From contig DATNIM010000021.1 in NCBI GenBank assembly GCA_035604455.1, forward strand, positions 1,730 through 65,729: 64,000 nt of DNA, given 5' to 3'. The translations under genes and the position numbers were made by a program. The notes under the pieces were generated by a model, which did not search any database, was not told where the DNA came from, and worked only from the letters and a program-made list of their open reading frames with translations. This document shows, piece by piece, positions 45,739-61,864 of the stretch (the first letter of the stretch is position 1; every line of letters starts with the position of its first letter). This stretch comes from Gemmatimonadales bacterium (GTDB lineage: Bacteria; Gemmatimonadota; Gemmatimonadetes; Gemmatimonadales; GWC2-71-9).

Positions 45739-46602
45739 GTGGCTGATCTCCGGCCCCTGGACTTTGGCGAGCTGTTGGATGGTTCGCTGGTGATCTATCG
45801 CCGGCAGTTCGGGCTGTTCCTCCGCCTCGCGGCGATCACGCTGGCGGTTCCCTTCCTTCTCCTCGTCTACGTCGGCGCACGCTACTTCGGGTCGCTGTCC
45901 GTGTTCTTTCGCCTCCCGAGCGTCGGTGAGGGGCTCTCGATCCTGGGCGTTGCGATGGCGTTCTACCTCGCGAGCGTCGTCCTTACGGCGGGGACGGTCC
46001 GCGTAATCTCTGACTCCTATCTCGGACGGACTCCGACCTTGCGAGAGGCCCTGGCCTTGGGCGTCGCGAAGCTCGGCCCGCTCGTGTGGGTGGGACTTGC
46101 CAAGGGAGCGATCCTCGGACTGATCGGCCTTGGGATCGCGGTGCTCGCGACGTTGCTCGCCGTGTTCGCGCGAAGCGGCGGGGTCGCGGCGGTCGCCATC
46201 CTGGTCGGCAGCCTCGGCGGCTGTTGGGTCATCGGGTTCGTGCTGTGTGGCTATGCCGTGACCACGCCGATCGTCGTCCTCGAGGCCCTGCCGCACGCGA
46301 CTGCCGCGTTTCGACGGTCGTGGGAGCTCACGAAGCAATACAAGCGCAAACTCCTGGGTCTCTGGCTCGTCGCGTTCCTGCTGACGAACACATTGCCGTC
46401 CCTGGCCTTCCGCGCTTTAGGGGTCTTGGCGCAGGGGCCCTGGCCGGTGATCGGCCTGGCGTTGACAGCGGCGGGGTACGTCCTGCCCCTGGTCTTGGCG
46501 CCGATTCTCGCGGCGGTGATCACCCTCATGTACTACGACCTCCGCGTGCGTCGCGAAGGCTTCGACCTCGAGATGCTGGCTCAGCACCTGGAGTCGCTCT
46601 GA
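45739..46602 (+). CDS. Polytopic membrane protein (first gene of the MoxR cluster)
   Basis: GTG 45739: VADLRPLDFGELLDGSLVIYRRQFGLFLRL..., about six TM segments, ending YYDLRVRREGFDLEMLAQ. The upstream part of the track ORF overlaps the divergent gene. Confidence 0.7.
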   Translation: MADLRPLDFGELLDGSLVIYRRQFGLFLRLAAITLAVPFLLLVYVGARYFGSLSVFFRLPSVGEGLSILGVAMAFYLASVVLTAGTVRVISDSYLGRTPTLREALALGVAKLGPLVWVGLAKGAILGLIGLGIAVLATLLAVFARSGGVAAVAILVGSLGGCWVIGFVLCGYAVTTPIVVLEALPHATAAFRRSWELTKQYKRKLLGLWLVAFLLTNTLPSLAFRALGVLAQGPWPVIGLALTAAGYVLPLVLAPILAAVITLMYYDLRVRREGFDLEMLAQHLESL

Positions 46603-46661
46603 CGGCGGGCGGGCCCACACTGCCCATTCAGTCGGACTCGCTCCGGCGCGCGCTCGCCGAA

Positions 46662-47216
46662 GTGTTTGCCCGGCCGGCCTACCGATGGGCAGAAGGCTAC
46701 ATCCCGCTGCGCGGGTTGGCACGCGCGATCGGGCGTGTGCTCGCTTGGCTCGGTGCACTCGAGCGGCGTCATCCAGCGGCGTCGCGCGCCGTCGTGGTGG
46801 GTCTCGTAGTACTCCTGGCCCTCCTGCTCGCGCACCTGGCCTATGTCCTCTGGAGCGTGACCCGTCCGACCGTTCGCACGTCCAGTCCGGGAGGTGGCGC
46901 GCCGAAGCCGGCCGTCGATACCCCGGAACGCCATCGCGATCGAGCCGAGGCCCTCGCGCGGGCAGGCCGCTTCACGGAGGCTCTGTCCCAGCGATTCGTG
47001 GCTGTGGTGCTGGAGCTCGACCGCGGTCGATTCGTCAACTTCCATGAATCCAAGACCCCCGCCGAGTATGTCGGCGAGCCGCGGCTCGACGAGTCTCGCC
47101 GTCGCTCGCTTGGCAGCCTCGTCGCGGCGCTCTACCGCCACGTCTTCGGCGCGGTCCCCTGCGACGAGCGGGGGTACCGGGAATTTGAGGCGGTTGCGGC
47201 GGCGGTCGAGCAGTGA
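46662..47216 (+). CDS. DUF4129-like protein (start uncertain)
   Basis: One TM helix, then RHRDRAEALARAGRFTEAL...FHESKTPAEYV...LYRHVFG. The first canonical start in frame is GTG 46662. The reading frame is open from about 46600 (a CTG start is possible). Confidence 0.6.
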   Translation: MFARPAYRWAEGYIPLRGLARAIGRVLAWLGALERRHPAASRAVVVGLVVLLALLLAHLAYVLWSVTRPTVRTSSPGGGAPKPAVDTPERHRDRAEALARAGRFTEALSQRFVAVVLELDRGRFVNFHESKTPAEYVGEPRLDESRRRSLGSLVAALYRHVFGAVPCDERGYREFEAVAAAVEQ

Positions 47217-48430
47217 GCGGGTCGCGGAAGACGGAGGCGGCGCTTGTGGTCGGGCTCCTCGGCGCACTCGGGGTAGCGCTCTGGGCGGGACGGCACGAGG
47301 CGGCGCGAAGTCCCGATGAGGATCCGCGCGCCTCGAGTTTCGGAACCGGCCCGCAAGGGAGCGGCGCGGTGTTCGATGTGCTTGATCGTCTCGGCTGGGT
47401 GGTCGAGCGCCGTCGGCGACCCCTCCTCGATCTCGCCACGGCGCAGCCGCGGCCAGCGGTCTTGCTTGAGCTCGCTCCGGTCATGCCGCTGTCGCCCGCC
47501 GAGCTGGCGCAAACGACGAGCTTCATCCTCGACGGCGGGGCGGTGGTTGCCGCGGGGGAGGGAGGGGGGATTGCCGCGTGTGCGGGATGGGCCCCCGTTC
47601 ACGGCGCCGGCCTGTTGGCCGAGGCCGACACGATCGACGTCCGGTCAGAATCGGGGCTTGTGCTCCCACCGGTGAGCGACGTCTTGGACCGAACCGGCGA
47701 GCGAACCCCCGCGCGGGGCGGGTGCGCAGATTTGGTGGGGCTGCGGGAGGACACCCTGCTCGTCACGCGTGACGGCCGGCCCGTGGTCGTGGACATCCGG
47801 TACGCGCGCGGAGGTCGGCTCACGCTGTGGGCCGATGCCGCCTATTTTCGCAACGAGACGTGGCGCGCCGGCAGCGCCCCGTACTTCGTAGCCCCCCTTC
47901 TCGTGCCCGAACGGGGTGCTGGCCCGATCGTGTGGGACGAATACCACCAGGGTTTCGGCGCCGAAGCGTCGCTCAGCGCGGCGACGTGGCAGTGGCTGGC
48001 AGGGACGCCGGGGGGGTGGGCGCTGCTCCAGCTCGTGGGCGTCGTCCTGGTCGGAGTGGCGGGCGCGGCGGTGCGGTTCGGGCCCGCGCGGCCGGTCATC
48101 GTGCGGAGCCGCCGGTCGCCGCTCGAGCATCTCGAAGCCCTGGCTGCTGGGCTCGAAGGCGCACGCGGCTCGGATGTGGCCGTTCGCCTCGCCGTAGCGG
48201 GCTTGCGCCGGCGGCTCGCGCGCGTGGGGCGGGCGACCTCGGCGGACGACCGCGAGTGGCTCGCCACACTCGAACGTGCGGCCCCAACGCCCGCGGGTCA
48301 GCTAGCGGTGCGGCGGCTAGAGCGCAGCGTACACGAACCCGGCGGACCGGAGCGCGCGCTCGCGGCCGCCCAAGCGGTGGAGGACGTGTGGGAGGAGCTG
48401 CACCCGCGCACGACGCGCGTGAAATCCTAG
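47213..48430 (+). CDS. DUF4350-like membrane-anchored protein
   Basis: GTGA overlap with the upstream stop. N-terminal TM, GAVFDVLDRLGWVVERR, WDEYHQG, second TM, C-terminal helical region. Confidence 0.65.
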   Translation: MSGSRKTEAALVVGLLGALGVALWAGRHEAARSPDEDPRASSFGTGPQGSGAVFDVLDRLGWVVERRRRPLLDLATAQPRPAVLLELAPVMPLSPAELAQTTSFILDGGAVVAAGEGGGIAACAGWAPVHGAGLLAEADTIDVRSESGLVLPPVSDVLDRTGERTPARGGCADLVGLREDTLLVTRDGRPVVVDIRYARGGRLTLWADAAYFRNETWRAGSAPYFVAPLLVPERGAGPIVWDEYHQGFGAEASLSAATWQWLAGTPGGWALLQLVGVVLVGVAGAAVRFGPARPVIVRSRRSPLEHLEALAAGLEGARGSDVAVRLAVAGLRRRLARVGRATSADDREWLATLERAAPTPAGQLAVRRLERSVHEPGGPERALAAAQAVEDVWEELHPRTTRVKS

Positions 48431-49344
48431 GAGCGATCGAACGGGTTGTGCTCGGCCAGCAGGCCGCTACGCGGGAGGTGCTGATCTGCCTCCTCGCCCG
48501 CGGCCACGCACTCCTCGAAGGTGTTCCGGGAACGGCCAAAACGCTGCTCGTTCGCGCGCTCGCGCTCACCCTGCAGGTGCGCTTCCAACGGATCCAGTTC
48601 ACGCCCGATCTCATGCCGGCAGATATCACGGGCGTCTCGCTCCTGTCCGGCACGCACGAGTTCATCTTCCGGCCGGGCCCGGTCTTCGCGGACGTCGTCC
48701 TCGCCGACGAGATCAACCGAGCCCCGGCGAAGACGCAGGCGGCGCTCCTCGAAGCCATGCAGGAACGGACCGTCACGGTCGACGGGACGGTGCATCCGCT
48801 GTCAGAGGCCTTCACGGTGTTCGCCACTCAGAACCCGATCGAGTTCGAGGGCACCTATCCTCTGCCCGAGGCCGAGCTCGACCGCTTCATGATGAAGATC
48901 GTCATCGGCTACCCGGCCGAGGCCTTGGAGCAGGCGATGCTCAGGCGCTACGTGGAAGGCTTTGAGGCTGACCGGCCGGCGACCTTCGGCATCGCTCCGG
49001 TCACAGATAGAGCCGGCCTCGAACGGTTGCGCGGGGAGGTGGAGCGAGTGCACGTCGAGCCGCAGGTGACTGCGTACATCACGGCCGTGGTTCGCGCGAC
49101 CCGCGAGACCGCCTCGTTGACCCTCGGTGCGAGCCCGCGCGCCGGCGTCGCCCTGCTCAAGGCCACTCGCGCGCAGGCGGTTTTGGAAGGTCGCGACTAC
49201 GTCATCCCCGACGACGTGAAGCAACTTGCAATTCCCGTGTTGCGGCACCGGGTTCGGCTCGCCCCGGAGCTCGAGCTGGAGGGTGTGACACCCGACGCGG
49301 CGCTGCGCACCGTGCTGGACCGCGTGGACGTTCCCACGACGTGA
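48388..49344 (+). CDS. MoxR-family AAA+ ATPase
   Basis: HALLEGVPGTAKTLLVRALA (Walker A), VVLADEINRAPAKTQAALLEAM (Walker B / sensor), TVFATQNPIEFEGTYPLPEAELDRF. GTG 48388 overlaps the upstream gene by 43 nt. The start is uncertain. Confidence 0.92.
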   Translation: MGGAAPAHDAREILGAIERVVLGQQAATREVLICLLARGHALLEGVPGTAKTLLVRALALTLQVRFQRIQFTPDLMPADITGVSLLSGTHEFIFRPGPVFADVVLADEINRAPAKTQAALLEAMQERTVTVDGTVHPLSEAFTVFATQNPIEFEGTYPLPEAELDRFMMKIVIGYPAEALEQAMLRRYVEGFEADRPATFGIAPVTDRAGLERLRGEVERVHVEPQVTAYITAVVRATRETASLTLGASPRAGVALLKATRAQAVLEGRDYVIPDDVKQLAIPVLRHRVRLAPELELEGVTPDAALRTVLDRVDVPTT

Positions 49345-50651
49345 TCCTGCCAACCCGCCGCGCGCTTTGGAGCGCCGCCGCCGCGGCGCTCCTCGCGCTC
49401 GCGGGGTACTGGATTCCGGGCGCACGCGCGGCGCTGGTCGTCGTGGATCTGGCCCTCATTGCCGGGATTTGTTTCGACTTCTGGAGCGTCCCTCGGCCAG
49501 GGATCACGCGCGAGTCGTCGACCGCATTCTCGGTCGGCCGCTCGACGCCCGTCGCCTACCGGTGGGCCAATCCGTCAATTCGGCGGCTGCGCTTGCGGGT
49601 CCGCGAGGTGCGGCCGGACCTGCTCGGCGGGCTCCAGCCCCCGCGCGAGCTCACGGTGGAGCCTCGGGCCACGCTGACCGAGACCGTCCACGTCGTGCCC
49701 GCGCGACGGGGCCGGACGCGGGGAGACGACGGCGCTATGGTGGTCGATGCCCGTGGTCCCCTCGGTCTCGGGGTGCGGCGCGGCACCGTCAAGCTCCCTT
49801 GGGGGGCCCTGGTGTATCCGCCGTTAACGGCCGCGCGACTCGCCTCCGTTGCCGAGGCCCGGCGGCACCGGGCGCCGGGCCTGACGCCGGTCCGGCGCAT
49901 CGTAGGCGAGGGGCGCCAATTCGAATCCCTGCGCGATTGGGTCCCGGGCGATGACCTCCATCACATCGACTGGAAGGCGACGGCGCGGCGGCGGAAGGTC
50001 ATGCTGCGGCAATACGAAGTTGAGCGACGCCAGCAAGTCGTGCTGGTCATCGACACCGGACGACTGCTCAGCGCGCAAATCGGCGGAGGCACGCGGCTCG
50101 ACTATGTTGTCCGCGCGGCGCTCGATCTCGCGTACGCGGCGAGCGAGCTCGGCGACGACATCGGCGTCATGGCCTTCTCCGAAGGGGTCGACCACTTCGT
50201 GGCGCCGGCGCCCGGTCGCCGCGGGCTCCGGAGCGTCGTCGAGGTATTGGCCGTGCTCGAGCCCCACCTTGCGGAGCCCGATTACCCCGGGGCCTTTCGT
50301 TACCTGGCCCTCCGCAACCGTAAGCGCGCCCTCACGGTCGTCTTCACGGATCTCATCGACCGCCTGGCGTCCCAGGCGCTCGTCGCGAACGTCGCCGCAC
50401 TTCGCGCGCGGCACTTGCCGCTCGCCGTCACGCTGCGCAATTCCGGGATCGACGCGATCGCTGCCCTCCGGCCGACGGTCGCCGCGGACGCGTATCGGAA
50501 GGCCGCCGCCGAGGAGCTCCTCCGCGCCCGCGAAGACGCGCTGGCCGTGATGCGCGGGGGGGGAGTGGTGGTGCTCGATGTCCCGCCGGAACGGGCCGCC
50601 GAGGGCGTCGTCACGCAGTATCTCGCCCTCAAGCGGCGGGGACGCCTGTAG
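49341..50651 (+). CDS. DUF58 domain protein (vWA-like fold)
   Basis: GTGA overlap with the moxR stop. Two N-terminal TM helices. Signature: FESLRDWVPGDDLHHIDWKATARRRKVMLRQYEVERRQQVVLVIDTG. Confidence 0.85.
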   Translation: MILPTRRALWSAAAAALLALAGYWIPGARAALVVVDLALIAGICFDFWSVPRPGITRESSTAFSVGRSTPVAYRWANPSIRRLRLRVREVRPDLLGGLQPPRELTVEPRATLTETVHVVPARRGRTRGDDGAMVVDARGPLGLGVRRGTVKLPWGALVYPPLTAARLASVAEARRHRAPGLTPVRRIVGEGRQFESLRDWVPGDDLHHIDWKATARRRKVMLRQYEVERRQQVVLVIDTGRLLSAQIGGGTRLDYVVRAALDLAYAASELGDDIGVMAFSEGVDHFVAPAPGRRGLRSVVEVLAVLEPHLAEPDYPGAFRYLALRNRKRALTVVFTDLIDRLASQALVANVAALRARHLPLAVTLRNSGIDAIAALRPTVAADAYRKAAAEELLRAREDALAVMRGGGVVVLDVPPERAAEGVVTQYLALKRRGRL

Positions 50652-52168: not shown

Positions 52169-52879
52169 TCAGGCCGGGTTCGATCCGGCCTCGCCTGGCG
52201 CCACCACTTCGAGCTCATCCTCGACCGCCACCACACCTGGCGCTCCCCAGGCAGCCGCTTCAGCGGCCGCACGATCAGCCCATGAGTGGACGGTGCCCCG
52301 CAACACGACGCGGTCGCCGCACGTCTCCACCCTCACCAGCGTCGCGTCGCGAGCCGCGAGTTCGGCCCGACGCCGCAACGCGGCTTCGACCCGGCCTCGT
52401 ACGTCTGTCGGTTGCGGGGGCGCATTTGGGCGTAGGGCGACGAGGTTCGTCACCCCGACCACGCCCACGAGCGTCGCGACCGCCTCTTCGGCGGCAAGGC
52501 GCTCAAACGGCTTTTCGACCGTTCCCTCGAGGCGCACCCACCCATCGGCGACCCGCACGACGAGCTGCGTGGCATCGATTCGCGCGTTCCAGCGGAGCGC
52601 CTGCAACGCGGCTTCAGCAAGAGCTTCGTCGTCGCGCTCGTGGTGCGCGTGCAGCCTGACGTCGATGTCGTTGACCACGCCTCGGACGCCGGCTCGCTTC
52701 GCGGCGTGCTCAGCCGCGACCTTCTGAGCGTAGGTCGGCACCACACCAGTCAGCGCGACAACGTCGTCTTTCACCGCCACCGCAATGCCGGCCGCGTCCA
52801 GACTCGGTTCCCAGTTCAGTTCATCCAGCACGTGCTGGCGCAGCGTCTCTTGATCCCTCATCATGCCACCCCTTTGCAT
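52169..52879 (-). CDS. BON-domain protein (three BON repeats, OsmY-like)
   Basis: Three repeats of the type V.V..G.V.L.G.V....... A......GV..V.N.L: VAVKDDVVALTGVV...VRGVVNDIDV, VRVADGWVRLEGTV...VVGVTNLVAL, VETCGDRVVLRGTV...VVAVEDELEV. Confidence 0.85.
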   Translation of the reverse strand: MQRGGMMRDQETLRQHVLDELNWEPSLDAAGIAVAVKDDVVALTGVVPTYAQKVAAEHAAKRAGVRGVVNDIDVRLHAHHERDDEALAEAALQALRWNARIDATQLVVRVADGWVRLEGTVEKPFERLAAEEAVATLVGVVGVTNLVALRPNAPPQPTDVRGRVEAALRRRAELAARDATLVRVETCGDRVVLRGTVHSWADRAAAEAAAWGAPGVVAVEDELEVVAPGEAGSNPA

Positions 52880-52888
52880 GGCCGGGCT

Positions 52889-53599
52889 CTAGCCCGGCGG
52901 TGCGGCGTTGCCCAATGCCATCGGGCGCGCCCCCGCGTTGGCGTCCGCGACCAAGTAGCGCTTCAACCACCCCGTGACGAGCCAATCCAGGTGCGCAAGA
53001 GCGCGGGGAGCCTCGAGCAGCGGCCCCTGTACCGCAACAACTGCAAGCTCCTGAACTCCGCCAAACTTCCCCAGGGCGGAATAGTTCGCGCTCAGTATTC
53101 GCGCATCCGGGCCGGTCACGGCGAGGAGGACGGGGGTCGCGACCTGCGCTAAGTCTCGATCCCCAAGCTCGACGCTTCCGTCGAGCGCGATCGTCGTCTT
53201 CACCTGAGGTCCGTAGAGGGGAGCCGCCAGGAGCGCGGCGCTCGCGCCGAGATGCCATCCGACGAAACCCATGGGTAGGTCTTTGTATCGGGGCGCCCTC
53301 CCAAGCCACGCGGTGACCCTGAGCAACCGGCGCACCAGCAGGGGCAGATCAGAGGCTCCACCGCCCTGGGTCATTTCGCGGTCGGCCACGAGTTCGCAGC
53401 GGAGTGTTCCAAACCGCGAGCCGTACAGCGACCGTGCGAGACCCGCGTCGACGCGAGCGGTCAGACTGCTGCCTGCCGCGTGCCCGAACACCACCAGTCC
53501 GACGGGATTGGACGGCATAAGCACTATGGCCGATAAGAGTCTTTCGCCCGCGGGAATCTGTGCCATCATTTCCACCGTTGGGCCGGGTCCGATCGCCAT
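52889..53599 (-). CDS. Alpha/beta-hydrolase-fold protein, dienelactone-hydrolase-like
   Basis: LVVFGHAAGSS..., FVGWHLGASAAL (nucleophile-elbow position), VLLAVTGPDARI. Strong AAAGGAGG Shine-Dalgarno. Confidence 0.6.
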   Translation of the reverse strand: MAIGPGPTVEMMAQIPAGERLLSAIVLMPSNPVGLVVFGHAAGSSLTARVDAGLARSLYGSRFGTLRCELVADREMTQGGGASDLPLLVRRLLRVTAWLGRAPRYKDLPMGFVGWHLGASAALLAAPLYGPQVKTTIALDGSVELGDRDLAQVATPVLLAVTGPDARILSANYSALGKFGGVQELAVVAVQGPLLEAPRALAHLDWLVTGWLKRYLVADANAGARPMALGNAAPPG

Positions 53600-53722
53600 A
53601 GCAACCTCCTTTGAGACTCAGCCTATCCCTATCGGTGTGAACGCGTTCTGAGATCGGCATGAGGGAGGTCGGAGGCGAGGTAGAGGACGCCAAGGGCGAC
53701 GTCGGCGGGGGCTTCACGGGCT

Positions 53723-53746
53723 GTTCACCGTCCCGTCAGGGTGAAC
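53723..53746 (+). promoter_or_regulatory. Inverted repeat GTTCACC-N10-GGTGAAC upstream of the CBS gene
   Basis: Seen directly. 7-bp perfect arms, about 36 nt upstream of ATG 53782, in the divergent intergenic region. Confidence 0.3.
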
Positions 53747-53781
53747 CGGGCAGGTTGATGCGGGTGCACGAGGAGGTCCCA

Positions 53782-54249
53782 ATGATGAGGATTCACGAGG
53801 TGATGACGCTCCGTCCCGTCACGGTGACCCCGCAAACCATGATCCGCGACCTCATGGGCCAGTTCGACCGTCACGAGTTCAATGCCTTCCCGGTCGTAGA
53901 CGAAGGTGGCGGCGCGCTGATGGGGATCGTGACGAAGCTCGACGTGCTGAAGGCGCTGCGCCCGCAGCCGGAGGCGGGGTTCGAGCCATCTCTGACGTTC
54001 GGTCGCGTCGAGAACATTATGCGTCATGGAGTCGTCGTAGTGGAGCCGGACGATCCTGTCATCGTAGCCGCGGACCTCATGGTCGAAACGCATCTGCGGA
54101 GCCTGCCGGTCGTGCGACGGCCGGGCGGGTCGGCTCCCCAGCTCGTGGGCATCGTGAGTCAGGGCGATCTCTTGCGCGCTTTGCGATTGGGGGCAGCGGA
54201 CCCTCAATTGGCGACGCGGCGCCAAGTGATGGCTTCGGTCGACACATGA
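53782..54249 (+). CDS. CBS-domain pair protein
   Basis: MMRIHEVMTLRPVTVTPQT...FPVVDEGGGALMGIVTKLDVL...IMRHGVVVVEPDD...LPVVRRPG...LVGIVSQGDLL. AGGAGG Shine-Dalgarno 5 nt upstream of ATG 53782. Confidence 0.85.
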   Translation: MMRIHEVMTLRPVTVTPQTMIRDLMGQFDRHEFNAFPVVDEGGGALMGIVTKLDVLKALRPQPEAGFEPSLTFGRVENIMRHGVVVVEPDDPVIVAADLMVETHLRSLPVVRRPGGSAPQLVGIVSQGDLLRALRLGAADPQLATRRQVMASVDT

Positions 54250-54908
54250 GAGACCACGAGGGAATCTTCCGGGACCGGACCGATGCCGGAGTCGACTTGG
54301 CGCGGCACTTGATGCGGCACCGCGGGCCCGGTACCCTCGTGCTGGGTATTCCGCGAGGCGGTGTGGTGGTCGCGGCGGAGATCGCACGCCAGCTCGATGC
54401 GGAGCTCGACGTCGTCGTGGCGCGAAAGCTCGGCGCGCCCATGTCAGAAGAGCTGGCCATCGGGGCGGTGAGCGCGAATGGTGGTCGTTATCTCAATGAG
54501 GACATCATCCGGGAGCTCGATGTCTCGCCTGACTATCTGGCAACGGTCACCGAGCGTGAACAGGCCGAAGCGCGCAGGCGCGAGGCGCGGTTCCGGGGGG
54601 GCCGGCCCGCCCCGCGCGTGGCGGGGCGCACGGTGATCGTGGTTGACGACGGCCTGGCCACCGGGGCCACGATGTATGCGGCCGTGCGCTCAGTACGCCA
54701 GCAATCGCCCGCCCGCCTTGTTGCGGCGGTACCGGTAGGCTCTCGCGAAGGGTGCGCCGTGTTGCGCAACGAGGTGGACGAGCTCGTGTGCCTTCTTGCG
54801 CCGGACTTCTTCGCGGCCGTAGGGAGCTTCTATCTCGACTTCCGGCCCACCGAGGACGCAGCCGTCGAGCGACTGCTCAAAGAATCCGGCACGGTCGCAC
54901 CGGCCTGA
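54246..54908 (+). CDS. Phosphoribosyltransferase-family protein (stress-cluster type)
   Basis: FRDRTDAGVDLARHL...VLGIPRGGVVVAAEIA, PRPP loop VIVVDDGLATGATM. ATGA overlap with the CBS gene stop. Confidence 0.85.
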   Translation: MRDHEGIFRDRTDAGVDLARHLMRHRGPGTLVLGIPRGGVVVAAEIARQLDAELDVVVARKLGAPMSEELAIGAVSANGGRYLNEDIIRELDVSPDYLATVTEREQAEARRREARFRGGRPAPRVAGRTVIVVDDGLATGATMYAAVRSVRQQSPARLVAAVPVGSREGCAVLRNEVDELVCLLAPDFFAAVGSFYLDFRPTEDAAVERLLKESGTVAPA

Positions 54909-54917
54909 CCTAGCCGC

Positions 54918-55856
54918 GTGACGCTCACCTTGTTCGCGGGCAGTGCGCACCCGGGGCTCGGCGCCGCGGTGGCGGCCGGTCTTGGCCAAGAGCTCGGCGC
55001 ATCGGAAATCCACGCGTTCCCCGACAGCGAACTGTCGGTGGGGCTCCGACAGAGCGTGCGCGGGCACGATGTCTACATCCTCCAGCCGACCGCGCCGCCC
55101 ACAGTTGAGCGTCACCTGGTCGAGCTTTTGCTCCTGGCGGACGCCGCCCGTCGGGCCGGCGCTGCTCGGCTCACGGCGGTAATTCCCTATTTGGGCTATG
55201 CCCGTCAGGACCGTCGGGCAACGGGCCGGGAAGCCGGCGCAGCTCGCGTGATCGCCGATCTCATTGACACCCGTGGCTTCGCTCGGCTGGTGGCGCTCCA
55301 CCTCCATTCGGTGGCGCTGGAGGGCTTCTTCGGGACGCCGGTGGAACATTTGAGCGCGGTGCCTCTTCTGGCAACGGCCCTTGCGCCGCAGCTTCCGGCG
55401 GACGGTGTCGTCGTGGCTCCCGATCTCGGCGCCGCCAAACTTGCCGAGCGCTACGCCCGCGTGCTACGCCTCCCGGTGGCGATTGTGCACAAGGAGCGGC
55501 AAGCCGGCGCCGAGGTCTCCGTGCGCGCCATTACCGGCGATGTGCGGAATCGCGTACCGATCATCGTCGACGACATGATCACGACGGGCGCCACCATAGT
55601 CGCGGCGCAAACCGCACTTGTGGCCGCGGGTTGCAAGCCCGGGCTGATCGTGGCGGCGACTCACCCGCTGCTGGTCGACGGTGCCGTGGGACGCCTGCGA
55701 ACGCTGAACCCGCGGCGCCTCATCGTCACCGACAGCGTGGCCGCGCGCGAGAACCCCTCTTCCTTCGAAGTCGTTAGCGTGGCCTCGCTCCTGGCCGAGG
55801 CCATTTCACGTCTGCATCACGAGCGCTCGCTGCAGGATCTCCTAGCGCACGAATAG
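54918..55856 (+). CDS. prs: Ribose-phosphate pyrophosphokinase
   Basis: FPDSELSV, VYILQPT, IPYLGYARQDR, HLHS, VVAPDLGAAK, IIVDDMITTGATI. Confidence 0.93.
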   Translation: MTLTLFAGSAHPGLGAAVAAGLGQELGASEIHAFPDSELSVGLRQSVRGHDVYILQPTAPPTVERHLVELLLLADAARRAGAARLTAVIPYLGYARQDRRATGREAGAARVIADLIDTRGFARLVALHLHSVALEGFFGTPVEHLSAVPLLATALAPQLPADGVVVAPDLGAAKLAERYARVLRLPVAIVHKERQAGAEVSVRAITGDVRNRVPIIVDDMITTGATIVAAQTALVAAGCKPGLIVAATHPLLVDGAVGRLRTLNPRRLIVTDSVAARENPSSFEVVSVASLLAEAISRLHHERSLQDLLAHE

Positions 55857-55860
55857 CGGA

Positions 55861-56496
55861 TCAGATACCCAGTTCGGCGACCGCGCGCATGATGTCCGTG
55901 GCGGTGACGATTCCTATGAGCTCGCCCGCTTCAAGCACGACGGCCCGGTGCACGCGCTCTTTGAGCATATAGGCGGCGGCGTCCGCGACCGTCGTGTCGG
56001 GCGAGACGGCCCGCACTCCCTGACTCATGGCCTCGGCCACCGTGTGTTCGCCGAGCACGTCCCACTCCGGCCCGGCGAGGGACTCGAAGCGCTGCGCCAC
56101 ATCGGCCCCCGCGTCTGCCCACAGATCGTTGAAGTAAGTGCTCGGCGTCTCGGCGTCGGGCTCCCACATTTCGCCAGCCGGTGACTCGAGCTCGGTTTCC
56201 CCCTCGGCGCTCTCCATGCGCTCGGTTGGGACCCCTGGGGTATCCGCTTCGAATGCCAGGATGTCGTTCGCTGAGATTGCCCCGACCACGGCGCCCGCGG
56301 ACACGACCGGCGCGCCGGTGATGTGCTGGGCGGCCAGGATCTCGACGGCGTCGCGCAGCGTAAGCGCGGGATCGAGCACCTGAACGCTGGGGGACATGAT
56401 GTCCCGCACCGTAACCGCGCTCTTGCGGGAGCCAGCGGCCCGCGGGTGCGGCGCGCGGCGAGCTGGCTTGTTGTGCTTCGTCTGCAGCCTCCTCAT
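55861..56496 (-). CDS. CBS-domain pair protein with an acidic insert
   Basis: VRDIMSPSVQVLDPALTLRDAVEIL...GAPVVSAGAVVGAISANDIL and VAEAMSQGVRAVSPDTTV...RAVVLEAGELIGIVTATDIM. GGAGGG Shine-Dalgarno upstream of ATG 56496. Confidence 0.8.
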   Translation of the reverse strand: MRRLQTKHNKPARRAPHPRAAGSRKSAVTVRDIMSPSVQVLDPALTLRDAVEILAAQHITGAPVVSAGAVVGAISANDILAFEADTPGVPTERMESAEGETELESPAGEMWEPDAETPSTYFNDLWADAGADVAQRFESLAGPEWDVLGEHTVAEAMSQGVRAVSPDTTVADAAAYMLKERVHRAVVLEAGELIGIVTATDIMRAVAELGI

Positions 56497-56922
56497 AGGG
56501 CCCTCCGAGTTGCGGTGACCAGCCTCGGCGGACAGTCTCGCGCCGGAGGGGTGAGGCCATCGTGAACGGGCGATGAGCGATTTCTCCGCGCGGCCGGTTC
56601 GCGTAAAGATGATCTCAGGTGAGTTTGGCGCGCTGTTCATCGACGGGGGGCTGTGCTAGCGAAGGCGTAAGGGCTCCGGGCAAATCAGGAAGGTGGCCCC
56701 AGTGGCCGCCAACGGGGCTTGCACGTACGAGGTTCGTACGATGGCCTCACGAGGAGTGGACGACGTCCACCCGCCCGGCGCCCTACGCCACCGCTGTTCT
56801 TTCTCCATCTCGCTCGCAAAAACGCCTGCTTGATTGATTGTTCCGTCCATCTACCTGACGGCGCGGGGACGGCGTAGCTCTGCGGCCGCCCGCCGCCCTG
56901 CCGGGCTGTCTCGCGCCGATCG

Positions 56923-57708
56923 TCAGTCCGCGAAGCGCAGCAGAGCCGCTAGCCCATCCACGCGCTTGGCAAGCACCGGATCTCGGATCAGCTCGATGGC
57001 GGCGCCTTGCCGGAGCCCTTCCTCTTGTGCTTGGCCCACGAGATCCGGCTCCGGAACCGCATCCCCCTCGCCGCGGCAATCGGTCGCCGTCAGCACGAGG
57101 CGACCCGACATGGAGCAGCGGAAGCCCGCGCCGGTCACCCCGGGAACGACCAAGAGCGTACGGACCTGGCCTCGCCCGAGCGCCCGCAGCGTCTCGCGCG
57201 CGCCATTGGTCGCCGCGCCGCGGCCCACTCCCTCTTCCATCTTGGCGACGAGGTCGGATTCGACGGCGTGCCGGTGGGCCGCGCGGGCCGCTTCCGCCGC
57301 CCCCACCAGGGCCGCCATTGTCACCTCCGGAGGACTGAGGTGCGTGACGCCGATTACGCGGTCGGCCAAAGCCGCCGGCAACACCTTGGCGAGCGCGGCC
57401 GTCGCGGGCCCCGGCCCGGCGAGGAGGATCCCCTCAGCCGGTCGCTCGCGCTCCAGTTCCACGAGCTGCGCGACGACTCCCTCGAGGTGCCGGTGCTCCT
57501 CTTCGCGGACCCGGCCGTGATACTCGCGCTCTCCCCAGCCCGGTCCGCCTTGGCGGTCGCTATGGAAACGTTTGCCATGCATTGCCGGGGACCGAAAATC
57601 GGCCACTTCCCTGACCCCACTATTCGTTACTTCGAAGAACCGCGCGTGGGCGCGATCGAGTACCACCGCGAGCACGCGTTCAAAGTCCTGCGCCACACTG
57701 GTTGTCAT
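56923..57708 (-). CDS. eRF1/Pelota-like protein (bacterial aeRF1-type, host-attachment-protein-like); no GGQ motif seen
   Basis: Three-part layout: LAVVLDRAHARFFEV...; ILLAGPGPATAALAKVLPAALADRVIGV; ATNGARETLRALGRGQVRTLLV...GAAIELI...GLAALLRF. These resemble the eRF1/Pelota central and C-terminal domains. GGAG Shine-Dalgarno. Confidence 0.65.
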   Translation of the reverse strand: MTTSVAQDFERVLAVVLDRAHARFFEVTNSGVREVADFRSPAMHGKRFHSDRQGGPGWGEREYHGRVREEEHRHLEGVVAQLVELERERPAEGILLAGPGPATAALAKVLPAALADRVIGVTHLSPPEVTMAALVGAAEAARAAHRHAVESDLVAKMEEGVGRGAATNGARETLRALGRGQVRTLLVVPGVTGAGFRCSMSGRLVLTATDCRGEGDAVPEPDLVGQAQEEGLRQGAAIELIRDPVLAKRVDGLAALLRFAD

Positions 57709-57757
57709 GGTCAGAGCTCCTCGGCGCCTGGAGTCGGCGCCGGCTTCAACATCCTCG

Positions 57758-58312
57758 CTACCCGACCGTCACATGACCCCGAGCGATGTGCACCGAGGTG
57801 GCCTGGGGGCCCTTTTGGCCGGGCTCTTCGGTGAAGCGGACCTCGGCGCCGACGTCGACTCGAGGCAACGCACCGTCCAGGACGCTGTGAGCGTCGAAGT
57901 AGACTTCATGCCCATCCTCCGCTTCCTCGATGAACCCGTAGCTGCCGAGCGGATAGTACTGGCTGACCCGGCCGCGCCGCAGCGTCTCGTGTGCCTTCAC
58001 AGCGCCGTGTTGGCGCCGGGCGTAGTCCTCCAGCCGCCGGCGTGCGGCGCTGAACGCGTCTTGGAAGGCCGTGCGAAGGTCCGCGTGCGGTTGTCGACCG
58101 ATCGCGACTGCCCCGCCGGGCAGCATGAGCTCCAGCCGGACGCGGTAACGCTCGGCGTCGCTCCGACGCCGTCGCTGCGGCGTATCGATCGTCACGACCG
58201 CCCTCACGATCCGACTATAGAAGCGTGTAAGCCGGGCCATCCGCTTGCGAAGGTCCTGTTCCAGCTCAGGAGAGAGCTCGAAGTTCAAAGCAGCAATGCG
58301 CAACGGCACCAT
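57758..58312 (-). CDS. Ribosome hibernation factor (HPF/RaiA) fused to a cold-shock domain
   Basis: HPF-like: LRIAALNFELSPELEQDLRKRMARLTRFYSRIVRAVVTID...DLRTAFQDAFSAARRRLEDY. CSD: GRVSQYYPLGSYGFIEEAEDGHEVYFDAHSVL...GAEVRFTEEPGQKGPQATSV. AAGGAG Shine-Dalgarno before ATG 58312. Confidence 0.85.
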   Translation of the reverse strand: MVPLRIAALNFELSPELEQDLRKRMARLTRFYSRIVRAVVTIDTPQRRRRSDAERYRVRLELMLPGGAVAIGRQPHADLRTAFQDAFSAARRRLEDYARRQHGAVKAHETLRRGRVSQYYPLGSYGFIEEAEDGHEVYFDAHSVLDGALPRVDVGAEVRFTEEPGQKGPQATSVHIARGHVTVG

Positions 58313-58597
58313 AGGTCGCTCCTTCAGGTCCGTCTGCAAGCTGGCTGTTCCCGGATGAAGGAGTCCTGAGGGAGCAAGGAAGGTCTAGCCGTCGTCTTAG
58401 CGTTTCAGCGCGTCGGTCGGCCTGCTCTTTGGCCTGTGGCGAGCGGCCGGGCGGCGCGGCTCGACCCGATCGACGCCCTGCGTCATGAGTGTGGCGTCTT
58501 CGACCCAAACTCACGGGTGCTTAACGCAGGAGGTGTGATCGTTGCCCGAGGAGCGAGGGTGTAGGGCAAAGGTTGCATCAAATGAGGAGAATGAGCC

Positions 58598-58852
58598 ATG
58601 AAGTACACTGCACAGGAGTTCACGGCTGCGGCGAGAGTGGCCGCGGCTCGCGCCCGCTCGCGGGCGCGGCGGCTGTTTGAACGGGCGGATGCAGCACTCA
58701 TCTACGCCGGTGATGCGGCCCGGCGGCGTCAGCGGAGACGGGCCGCGAGTATTGCGCTGAGGTTCGCAGCGCGGGCCGTGCTGGTCGCCGGAACAGCGGC
58801 CATTGGGGTTGCGGCCGCGCGCGCTCTCCGGTCCCGGAAGCCGAGCGCCTGA
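58598..58852 (+). CDS. Hypothetical small Arg/Ala-rich protein with a C-terminal TM helix
   Basis: GAGGAG Shine-Dalgarno 8 nt upstream of the ATG. Followed by a strong terminator. Confidence 0.45.
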   Translation: MKYTAQEFTAAARVAAARARSRARRLFERADAALIYAGDAARRRQRRRAASIALRFAARAVLVAGTAAIGVAAARALRSRKPSA

Positions 58853-58881
58853 TTCGGTCCAAAGCTGTGCTCCAAATTTAC

Positions 58882-58918
58882 GCGGGGGTCCGGATCACCG
58901 GACCCCCGCTCTCTTTGT
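58882..58918. terminator. Strong, probably bidirectional, intrinsic terminator
   Basis: Perfect 12-bp stem GCGGGGGTCCGG-ATCA-CCGGACCCCCGC, followed by TCTCTTTGT and preceded by AAATTTA. Lies between convergent genes. Confidence 0.8.
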
Positions 58919-60267: not shown

Positions 60268-61083
60268 GTGACGACCTCCCAGGGCTCCCCCCGGGTCATT
60301 GAGACGAACGCCTTGACCAGGGTCTTCGGCGAGCTTTCGGCCGTAGACCACCTCGACCTGGGCGTGGAACAGGGGGTGATTTTCGGGCTACTCGGCCCGA
60401 ACGGGGCGGGGAAGAGCACGACGATCAAGATGCTCACGACGCTCCTCCCTGCCACGTCGGGCAGTGCGCGGGTCGCGGGCTACGACATTAGTCGCGAGGC
60501 GCCTCAAGTCCGGCGTCGCATCGGCTATGTACCCCAGCTCCTGTCGGCGGACGGCGGGCTGACCGGACGGGAGAACCTCACGCTGTCGGCTCGCCTGTAC
60601 CGGGTGCCGCGTCCCGAGCGGGGCCGCCGGATCGCCGACGCACTCGCGTTCATGGATCTTGCCGACGCGGCTGATCACCTCGTCCGCACCTACTCGGGGG
60701 GAATGATTCGCCGCCTTGAGATCGCCCAGGCGATGCTGCACGAGCCCGAGATACTCTTTCTGGACGAACCGACGGTCGGGTTGGACCCCGTCGCCCGCCG
60801 CGCGGTGTGGGAGCGCCTGCGCGAGCTCAAGCGCCGGTCGCGGACGACCATTCTTCTGACTACCCACGACATGGAAGAGGCTGACATCCTCTGCGATCGC
60901 CTCGCGATCCTGCACCAGGGGAAAGTTGCGGTCATCGGGGTACCGAGCGAGCTCAAGGCGGTCGTGGGGCCGGAGGCCACCTTGGAAGATGTGTTTGTGC
61001 AGACCGTCGGAGGCGCTGTCGAGGAGGGAGGGACCTACCATGACGTCCGTCGAGTCCGTAGTACCGTCCGCCGGCTGGGGTAG
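60268..61083 (+). CDS. ABC transporter ATP-binding protein (ABC-2/DrrA-like)
   Basis: GLLGPNGAGKSTT, YSGGMIRRLEIAQAM, ILFLDEPTVGLD, TTHDMEEA. Confidence 0.92.
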   Translation: MTTSQGSPRVIETNALTRVFGELSAVDHLDLGVEQGVIFGLLGPNGAGKSTTIKMLTTLLPATSGSARVAGYDISREAPQVRRRIGYVPQLLSADGGLTGRENLTLSARLYRVPRPERGRRIADALAFMDLADAADHLVRTYSGGMIRRLEIAQAMLHEPEILFLDEPTVGLDPVARRAVWERLRELKRRSRTTILLTTHDMEEADILCDRLAILHQGKVAVIGVPSELKAVVGPEATLEDVFVQTVGGAVEEGGTYHDVRRVRSTVRRLG

Positions 61084-61864
61084 TCGCGGTACCGTCGCGT
61101 CGTTCGTTGCGCAAACGATGGCGGTGGCGGAAATGGAGGTTCGCAAGCTCGCTCGCGATCCCGCCGAGCTCGTGAGCCGCGCGGTGCAGCCCGTCCTCTG
61201 GCTGATCGTGTTCGGCCAGGTCTTCACCCGAACGCATGCAATCCCCACGGGCGAGATGAGCTACCTCGAGTTCATGGCGCCCGGCGTGCTTGCGCAGGGG
61301 GTCCTGTTCACCTCGATCTTCTACGGCATCGCGGTGATCTGGGAGCGAGACCTCGGGATCATTCACAAGCTGCTGGCGAGCCCCGCGCCCCGCGCGAGCT
61401 TGGTGCTGGGCAAGGGCCTCGCAGCCGGCGCCCGCGGCGTGCCCCAGGCCGCCATCATCTTCGTCCTCGCCGCCCTCCTCGGGCTCAGACTGGATGTCAC
61501 ACCGGGCGCATTAATCGCCGTGTTTGGATTGGTCGTCCTCGGCTCGGCGGCGTTCGCTACGTTCTCGCTCGTGGTGGCGTGTATCGTAAAGACCAGGGAG
61601 CGGTTCATGGGGATCGGGCAGTTGCTCACCATGCCGCTGTTCTTCGCAAGCAACGCGATCTACCCCCTCGAGCTCATGCCCGGGTGGCTTCGGGTCGTCG
61701 CGCGCGTCAATCCGCTGACGTACTTGGTCGATGGGTTACGGGCCTCCATGATTCACGGCGCAGTAAGCCGCTTCGGGTTGGGCGTGGATGCACTGGTTGT
61801 CCTTGTCCTCCTCAGCCTCCTCGTCGCCGTAGCGGCTCGGCTGTATCCGGGACTCGCCCGCTAG
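61040..61864 (+). CDS. ABC-2 type transporter permease
   Basis: ATG 61040 preceded by GGAGGGAGGGA. Six TM segments. 44-nt overlap with the ATPase gene. Confidence 0.85.
   Translation: MTSVESVVPSAGWGSRGTVASFVAQTMAVAEMEVRKLARDPAELVSRAVQPVLWLIVFGQVFTRTHAIPTGEMSYLEFMAPGVLAQGVLFTSIFYGIAVIWERDLGIIHKLLASPAPRASLVLGKGLAAGARGVPQAAIIFVLAALLGLRLDVTPGALIAVFGLVVLGSAAFATFSLVVACIVKTRERFMGIGQLLTMPLFFASNAIYPLELMPGWLRVVARVNPLTYLVDGLRASMIHGAVSRFGLGVDALVVLVLLSLLVAVAARLYPGLAR

Follow-up and report, generated by a model that had tools for sequence, protein, structure and literature searches.

What is the function of two adjoining genes of a Gemmatimonadales bacterium, of which one encodes an HPF/RaiA-type domain fused to a cold-shock domain (HPF-CSD) and the other a 261-amino-acid (aa) protein resembling eRF1 and Pelota? 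Both genes lie on the minus strand of a 64,000-nucleotide (nt) stretch (hereafter the window; GenBank assembly GCA_035604455.1, contig DATNIM010000021.1, positions 1,730 to 65,729), at 57758..58312 and 56923..57708, respectively, where a preliminary description made from the sequence had placed them; the peptide strings it quoted were all found in the 56923..57708 protein. That description had proposed a module for ribosome hibernation and rescue. Our analysis indicates that the two genes probably form an operon for ribosome hibernation, of the known class that combines baeRF-1 (Balon) with HPF/RaiA, and that their products would act jointly in hibernation. A non-catalytic A-site binder within a hibernation module, as was suggested earlier, is the best reading, since Balon is the closest structure, GGQ is missing and the gene is syntenic with HPF. 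No support was found for the rescue or recycling half of the proposal.

The 261-aa protein belongs to the aeRF1 superfamily and, within it, to the baeRF-1 clade. In Pfam it matched baeRF_family10 (E 1e-13, 52.0 bits against a gathering cutoff of 27.1), family2 (43.5 against 26.9 bits) and family3 (35.7 against 31.5 bits), and weak NCBIfam matches to two mycobacterial Balon models and to aRF1 were observed. When a profile of 19 homologues was compared with the PDB, it retrieved Pelota (3e-11), Balon Msmeg1130 (2e-7), Balon Rv2629 (9e-7) and also eRF1, and the alignment to Pelota 3j15 and to the Balon C-domains ran through the C-terminus, including the LaALLRf end. The AlphaFold2 (AF2) model, for which a multiple sequence alignment of 111 homologues was used, reached a pLDDT of 90 and a pTM of 0.79. 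In it, a long helix links a middle domain of RNase-H-like fold to a Pelota-type C-domain, which contains a conserved insert with two Cys (C198, C211) and ends in GLAALLRF. Searching this model with Foldseek gave ribosome-bound Balon Msmeg1130 as the best match (8v9l_z, E 5.6e-16, TM-score 0.75 on the query, 24% identity) and a second Msmeg1130 structure after it (8v9j_z, E 2e-15, TM-score 0.71 on the query), followed by eRF1, aRF1, Psychrobacter Balon, Rv2629 and Pelota; the C-domain matched the eRF1 C-domains 3ir9 and 5dmr. The eRF1/Pelota-like layout of middle and C-terminal domains that had been read from the sequence was thus borne out by Pfam, profile and model, and the fold was recovered with Balon as the best match. 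Judged by the model, the nearest characterised relatives of the protein are hibernation factors and not release or rescue factors.

Such proteins have been described before. The survey by Burroughs & Aravind 2019 (PMC6514570) covers the baeRF-1 families (PF18844, PF18845, PF18854, PF10116), their operon link with HPF and their predicted role as non-catalytic A-site blockers; the protein studied here shares this link and also the two-Cys insert of two strands that takes the zinc-ribbon position of the Pelota-type domain. Helena-Bueno et al. 2024 (PMC10901736) found Balon and RaiA bound on the same hibernating ribosome, noted adjacency as the commonest arrangement of their genes and demonstrated that Rv2629 and Msmeg1130 inhibit translation. 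The concept is therefore not categorically new, having been predicted in 2019 and demonstrated in 2024, and the preliminary remark that there was no known account of what such a pair does is outdated. The Balon proteins (P. urativorans Balon, Msmeg1130 and Rv2629) have the aeRF1-type middle and C-terminal domains and the lack of GGQ in common with the 261-aa protein. Moreover, the Balon gene also stands beside a RaiA/HPF gene in a stress locus, and Balon has several paralogues per genome, as do the relatives of the window (loci L039 and L048, L047 and L059, and others).

As had been noted, no GGQ tripeptide is present anywhere in the 261 residues, and the NIKS motif is not applicable because the protein has no N-domain. 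Where eRF1 has its GGQ loop, the model instead shows a loop, connecting strand 3 with the long helix, that reads RFHSDRQGGPGWGE and is taken to be flexible because of its low pLDDT. Among 111 family members, H49, D51, P56, G57, G59, E60, R66 and R73 are invariant or nearly so. Msmeg1130 differs in this respect, as the profile alignment showed it to be without the strictly conserved HSDRxGxPGWGE loop of the window family. The location and high conservation of the loop raise the alternative that the protein is an active release or rescue factor, in which H49, D51, Q53 and E60 would promote the hydrolysis of peptidyl-tRNA on stalled ribosomes before HPF-CSD locks them, so that rescue would be followed by hibernation. 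Q53 is indeed found in 78% of the short forms of the family (66 of 85), and the best Pfam match, baeRF_family10, was singled out for a conserved Gln and possible activity in the 2019 survey (PMC6514570). However, the protein has neither GGQ nor an N-domain that could sense a codon or mRNA, its closest structures are inactive Balon proteins, and in an alignment by eye the helix register puts the GGQ of eRF1 at G57-W58-G59 and not at Q53. At residue 53, 19 of the 85 short forms have H, A, S or G, and Gln is missing from 21 of the 26 long ones (present in 5). Since Q53 varies as a catalytic Gln would not, the sequences suggest that the protein most likely has no peptidyl-tRNA hydrolase activity, and an active rescue factor appears improbable to us. 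Q53 of 'RQGG' was also considered as a shifted catalytic Gln and rejected as a defining feature because it is variable within the family.

The family occurs in two forms, a three-domain form of ~377-430 aa with an extra N-terminal domain of ~130 aa and a two-domain form of ~252-266 aa. In our family scan, which used one genome per species, the best 80 loci were analysed, and all of these were from Gemmatimonadota metagenome-assembled genomes (MAGs) except one short contig labelled Solirubrobacteraceae. When the shared domains were placed in a neighbour-joining tree, the short forms fell into a single clade of 13, the window among them; one seeming exception is a long form truncated at the end of its contig. 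The 261-aa protein begins 10 residues ahead of strand 1 of the middle domain. With only 49 nt between the preceding gene and its open reading frame (ORF), the N-domain is genuinely missing, and the long paralogues in relatives do carry it. Sequence comparison places the loss of the N-domain recently and within one family, as the long and short forms are still ~50% identical over their shared part.

Balon itself has three domains, and it is through the HP motif of its ~130-aa N-terminal domain that it reaches A1492 and A1913 in the decoding centre (PMC10901736). The short clade is without this whole domain, and the decoding-centre contact is therefore lost. The Balon study discarded homologues of <300 aa (PMC10901736), a cutoff under which the 261-aa protein falls. 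The 2019 survey describes families without the C-domain or without both flanking domains, and no description of a form with only the middle and C-terminal domains was found in the part of it that was available (PMC6514570). A Gemmatimonadota clade of Balon-like proteins with no N-domain, a strictly conserved HSDRxGxPGWGE loop and synteny with HPF, often with Cpn60 in between, appears to be new.

Enough upstream sequence is available for 11 members of the short clade. In nine of these the short gene is preceded by an HPF gene in the same orientation, and in six of the nine this HPF gene carries the CSD. For the long form, an HPF gene is nearby in only 9 of 68 loci, all in basal lineages; the counts for either form are not phylogenetically independent. 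The HPF or HPF-CSD gene is directly followed by the short gene in the window, L003 and L006. In L001, L002, L007, L008, L010, L037 and the independent metagenome contig L084, a Cpn60/GroEL gene is placed between the two, while L004 has the order HHH protein, Cpn60, short gene, and L069 has neither HPF nor Cpn60 nearby. The HPF and short genes thus make up a conserved core of the operon in this clade, to which the chaperonin gene is often added. Of the co-occurrence raised in the preliminary description, the synteny of the pair in diverged relatives thus held, whereas a link between HPF-CSD and eRF1-like genes did not extend across the wider HPF-CSD family (see below). The link between HPF and baeRF in general crosses phyla according to the literature. 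The Cpn60/GroEL paralogue (~540 aa) is 85-89% identical among the genome loci and absent from the window, in the 64 kb of which no second copy of HPF, baeRF or GroEL was found; in L001 it is apparently frameshifted and split into several frames. We also considered that the CSD compensates for the lost N-domain. This idea was unsupported, as the CSD occurs with 6 of the 9 short and 7 of the 9 long HPF-linked loci, which is not a complementary pattern.

These arrangements bear on another explanation, namely that the 261-aa protein acts mainly on the free 50S subunit, or as a client or co-factor of Cpn60, and that its adjacency to HPF-CSD reflects shared stress regulation. Such a role would agree with the missing N-domain, which leaves nothing for contact with the 30S subunit, and with the position of Cpn60 directly upstream of the short gene in nine loci of the short clade (L001, L002, L004, L007-L010, L037 and L084), among them L004, where there is Cpn60 and no HPF. 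The short gene of L069 and the HPF-CSD genes that occur elsewhere without a baeRF gene would fit as well. It does not account for the HPF synteny in most of the informative clade members or for the directly adjacent pairs without Cpn60 in the window, L003 and L006, and Balon and RaiA are known to bind together (PMC10901736). We regard it as unlikely.

The first gene of the operon starts with ATG at 58312, 6 nt behind a GAAGGAG Shine-Dalgarno sequence (58319..58325). Its product had been described as a RaiA/HPF-like domain joined to a cold-shock domain, and Pfam and Foldseek agree with this. Residues 5-101 matched Ribosomal_S30AE (PF02482; E 4e-11, 43.9 bits against a cutoff of 23.7) and residues 114-175 matched CSD (PF00313; E 1e-6, 29.0 bits against a cutoff of 27.0), and the score for the yfiA equivalog TIGR00741 was 25.6 bits, under the cutoff of 40.9. 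The protein is 100% identical to a Gemmatimonadales MAG protein annotated as 'HPF/RaiA family ribosome-associated protein'. In the AF2 model the HPF domain has the strand and helix order E-H-E-E-E-H (DSSP) and is joined to the CSD by a short, low-confidence linker (aa 103-109). Compared with HPF and RaiA structures in the PDB by Foldseek, the HPF domain gave TM-scores of 0.85-0.94, the nearest being RaiA from the Balon-RaiA ribosome complex 8rd8 (0.88), together with other HPF/YfiA structures. The CSD is nearest to CspA (1mjc, TM-score 0.87), CspB and the CSD of YB-1 (0.8-0.9 on the target); for CspA, CspB and CspE the values on the target were 0.87-0.89. An inspection of the family alignment by eye showed SYGFI and VYFDA in the window protein where KGFGFI of RNP1 and VFVHF of RNP2 are expected, and YGF[IL] and [IV]YFH as the family consensus at these positions. 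The RNP aromatics are partly retained, and the His and the last Phe of RNP2 are substituted in the window protein.

By its Pfam matches HPF-CSD is a member of HPF/RaiA, and its architecture with a CSD is uncharacterised. Long HPF has a C-terminal dimerisation domain that makes 100S ribosomes, and RaiA/YfiA has a C-terminal tail; in the window protein, the C-terminal 70 aa form a CSD in their place, according to Pfam and fold. An HPF/RaiA fusion with four N-terminal CBS domains likewise combines HPF/RaiA with a second ligand- or nucleic-acid-binding module, and CBS-pair proteins are also encoded beside the operon in the window. It differs in that the partner here is a C-terminal CSD and the organism is bacterial.

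A third alternative denies both proteins a ribosomal role and makes the 261-aa protein a 'host attachment protein', the name given to it by NCBI, and HPF-CSD a nucleic-acid chaperone or transcription regulator. The former barely passes the cutoff of Pfam Host_attach (27.5 against 26.7 bits), and CSD proteins can be antiterminators, with weak NCBIfam matches of HPF-CSD to CspE and CspA. The Host_attach match, however, overlaps the stronger baeRF matches on the same stretch, and Foldseek matched both proteins to ribosome-bound structures with high confidence, which makes this alternative very improbable.

A search of 1.84 billion cluster representatives with an HPF-CSD profile yielded at least 758 proteins (50% identity clusters) at E <= 1e-30, and the fusion is therefore widespread. 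Among the matches listed (150), all 150 span both domains, mostly with a length of ~176-255 aa, and the source databases label the fusion 'cold shock CspA family protein/ribosome-associated translation inhibitor RaiA'. No functional description of an HPF-cold-shock fusion was found in the literature searched, most subscription journals being outside its scope, and the HibA paper is silent on it. A family-specific hidden Markov model detected no baeRF gene within 5 kb of HPF-CSD in any of 80 metagenome loci, and when the nearest gene on each side was scanned in these loci, the 25 commonest Pfam families did not include baeRF. Six more distant HPF-CSD loci were also looked up. One has a baeRF gene (L084) and represents the same Gemmatimonadota-type operon, three have other neighbours, and two contigs end right after the gene. 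A general linkage of HPF-CSD to eRF1-like genes was consequently rejected.

The 132 immediate neighbours in the Pfam census included RtcB (6), phosphoribosyltransferase (6), CBS (5), USP (3) and HSP20 (3), and also nitroreductase, BON and PRPP synthetase. Families of the stress island in the window thus recur beside HPF-CSD genes in unrelated metagenome contigs. This neighbourhood of stress, dormancy and RNA repair is consistent with a solo hibernation role of HPF-CSD. Outside Gemmatimonadota (loci L088-L167), the RNA ligase RtcB ties with phosphoribosyltransferase as the commonest neighbour, and an archease gene is found near HPF-CSD in L083, which hints at a link of the HPF-CSD variant to RNA repair. 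In L081 (4313-6110) and L082 (2906-4703), the genes directly behind HPF-CSD encode a 238-aa phosphoribosyltransferase and a protein of 169 aa for which a faint NMD3-like match was obtained, possibly a further ribosome-related partner.

Joint hibernation by the two proteins of the window has to be weighed against several observations. The NCBIfam Balon equivalog cutoffs are not reached by the 261-aa protein, which stays far under them (MSMEG_1130_fam_RHF, 47 against 480 bits; Rv2629_fam_RHF, 38.3 against 320 bits). Its loop is far better conserved than is reported for most inactive baeRF-1 families in the 2019 survey, where family 10 is also the one flagged as possibly catalytic (PMC6514570). 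With the N-domain and the HP motif missing, ribosome binding may be different or weaker. Since the wider HPF-CSD family is without a baeRF link, the CSD is not tied specifically to a Balon-like partner; its role is purely conjectural, and the joint action of this pair is extrapolated from Balon and RaiA. All these points weigh against the hibernation operon that we nevertheless consider probable.

If the Balon/RaiA ribosome structures are taken as a guide to such an operon, HPF-CSD and the Balon-like protein would be made together under stress. The HPF domain would fill the mRNA/tRNA channel of the 30S subunit, while the Balon-like protein would sit in the 50S side of the A site. Its HSDRxGxPGWGE loop would then adjoin the peptidyl-transferase centre, and its C-domain would take the factor-binding site, perhaps together with EF-Tu. 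Having no N-domain, the Balon-like protein would neither touch the decoding centre nor clash with HPF. More speculatively, the CSD, on its linker of ~8 residues from the end of the second HPF helix, which is directed to the E-site and platform in known complexes, could be located in that area and grip single-stranded RNA, the likeliest targets being the 16S rRNA 3' tail and leftover mRNA; it would then replace the dimerisation domain of long HPF or the tail of RaiA. The net effect would be 70S ribosomes that are reversibly silenced and protected, with no release of peptides and no ribosome splitting. A tentative extension, to which we give rather limited credence, is that the short clade practises a 'split' hibernation. 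HPF-CSD would then cover the whole 30S side, with HPF in the decoding channel and the CSD clamping the 16S 3' end or residual mRNA, and the Balon derivative without N-domain would confine itself to the 50S subunit, where it would plug the A site, the peptidyl-transferase centre and the factor site by means of its new, strictly conserved HSDRxGxPGWGE loop. The dedicated Cpn60 paralogue that many relatives encode in the operon might load or remove this derivative.

Upstream of the operon we found a tandem direct repeat with an 11-12-nt period, CTTCC-N7-CTCA-N6-CTTCAT (consensus CTTSC-N7-CTCA-N6-CTTCAY). Its core, CTCA-N6-YTTCAY, is present at the same position in seven related HPF-carrying loci, 41-60 nt upstream of the HPF or HPF-CSD starts. 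The core matched once in the window, where 0.17 matches are expected, and 27 times in 83 Gemmatimonadota loci, where ~1.5 are expected at the same rate. In related loci the motif also precedes genes for tandem universal stress protein (USP), CBS-pair, phosphoribosyltransferase, YgaP-like and HHH proteins. Copies with one mismatch lie upstream of three window genes, namely the second CBS gene (if it starts at 56496), the pair of the unknown and BON genes, and the ORF at 58598 (copy at 58510..58525 on the plus strand, 72 nt upstream of ORF 58598..58852); one-mismatch matches as a set are not enriched in the window (8 against 4.9 expected). The distribution of the motif suggests that it is a candidate operator of a dormancy-type or stress regulon, and its form would resemble the binding site of a winged-helix response regulator.

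The DosR regulon of mycobacteria comprises USPs, the CBS protein Hrp1, the phosphoribosyltransferase Rv0571c, HspX, nitroreductases, the RaiA-like Rv0079 and the Balon protein Rv2629. A similar gene content is seen around the operon and behind the motif (USP, CBS, phosphoribosyltransferase, BON), and the neighbours of HPF-CSD elsewhere are similar too (HSP20, USP, nitroreductase, CBS, RtcB). The DosR site differs from the window motif in being palindromic.

The 49-nt spacer of the operon and its GGAG, 8 nt ahead of ATG 57708, are as described before. The same description had placed an 8-bp hairpin here. A hairpin exists, of which only 7 bp form in the mRNA sense (CGGCGCC-N7-GGCGCCG); the claimed eighth pair is a T-G wobble on the plus strand only. 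Shuffled versions of the sequence fold equally well (z = -0.07) and the stem is not preserved in L003 and L006, where the gene order is the same, so it was rejected as a regulatory element. A scan of 55700..58900 for sigma-70 promoters and intrinsic terminators gave one promoter-like and one terminator-like match, both within coding sequence (CDS), and no Rfam family reached its gathering score in the whole window.

An island of stress-type genes (52169..56640) adjoins the operon (Table 1). Its second CBS-pair gene probably starts later than listed, at Met-49 (56496), because the CBS domains are C-terminal (the second comprises residues 201-255) and because the one-mismatch copy of the motif at 56562..56577 otherwise falls within the CDS. 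Divergent from the HPF-CSD gene is the small Arg/Ala-rich ORF 58598..58852 (plus strand, 84 aa) with a hydrophobic C-terminal stretch; it has no Pfam match and may not be a real gene. A cluster of MoxR-type AAA ATPase, DUF58/VWA and DUF4350/DUF4381 genes (46086..50651, plus strand) is located upstream of the stress island. On the plus strand, the genes for an ABC-transporter ATPase (60268..61083) and an ABC-2 permease (60926..61864) overlap by 158 nt as listed, and the start codon of the permease probably lies later.

Table 1. Coordinates of the operon, its parts and neighbouring genes in the window, and of the corresponding features in related loci
Feature	Position	Strand	Basis or remarks
HPF/RaiA-CSD fusion gene, operon gene 1	57758..58312	-	184 aa; Pfam S30AE + CSD; AF2/Foldseek
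HPF/RaiA domain	57995..58312	-	DSSP of model; Foldseek 8rd8_D RaiA 0.88 and 4hei HPF 0.94 (TM-scores on target)
Cold-shock domain, aa 112-176	57785..57979	-	Pfam CSD; five-stranded OB barrel in model; Foldseek
Balon-like/baeRF-1 gene without N-domain, operon gene 2	56923..57708	-	261 aa; Pfam, profile, AF2, Foldseek
Middle domain (RNase-H fold, aeRF1 M-type), aa 8-125	57334..57687	-	Model; Pfam baeRF models align residues 5-126
Loop at eRF1 GGQ-loop position, aa 40-60	57529..57591	-	Alignments, column counts
C-terminal domain (Pelota/eRF1 C-type), aa 161-259	56932..57228	-	Profile alignment, invariant columns
Intercistronic spacer	57709..57757	-	49 nt; GGAG 57717..57720; 7-bp GC stem 57722..57742
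Direct-repeat motif, candidate promoter/operator of operon	58355..58382	-	42 nt before HPF-CSD start
BON-domain (OsmY-like) gene	52169..52879	-	
Unknown gene	52889..53599	-	236-aa protein
CBS-pair gene, first	53659..54249	+	
Phosphoribosyltransferase	54246..54908		220 aa
PRPP synthetase	54918..55856		
CBS-pair gene, second	55861..56640	-	259 aa as listed from ATG 56640
Motif in relatives	L001 1953; L002 519; L007 1745; L008 1749; L010 895; L021 1378; L037 1922	+	
Cpn60 paralogue in relatives	L002 1137-2762; L004 2379-3920; L007 2361-3989; L008 2367-3998; L009 86-1627; L010 1526-3154; L021 1936-3624; L037 2368-3999; L084 5563-7182		

The locus fills in a variant of a known system, and current understanding is not overturned by it. 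Hibernation governs the survival of bacteria under starvation and their regrowth, and Balon was recognised only in 2024. Some of the Balon homologues of <300 aa are conserved, operon-linked proteins and not fragments, and it is exactly the decoding-centre domain that they have lost. The short clade is thus a natural test of which Balon domains serve ribosome binding and which serve cooperation with RaiA/HPF. If the split mode of hibernation is true, HPF-CSD would be a fourth major HPF class beside short HPF, RaiA and long HPF, with a C-terminal module that clamps RNA and does not dimerise. HPF-CSD is abundant in environmental bacteria, and knowing the target of its CSD would widen the catalogue of HPF architectures. 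For Gemmatimonadota, a soil phylum that is common and little studied, the upstream motif gives an entry point to a dormancy regulon not yet characterised.

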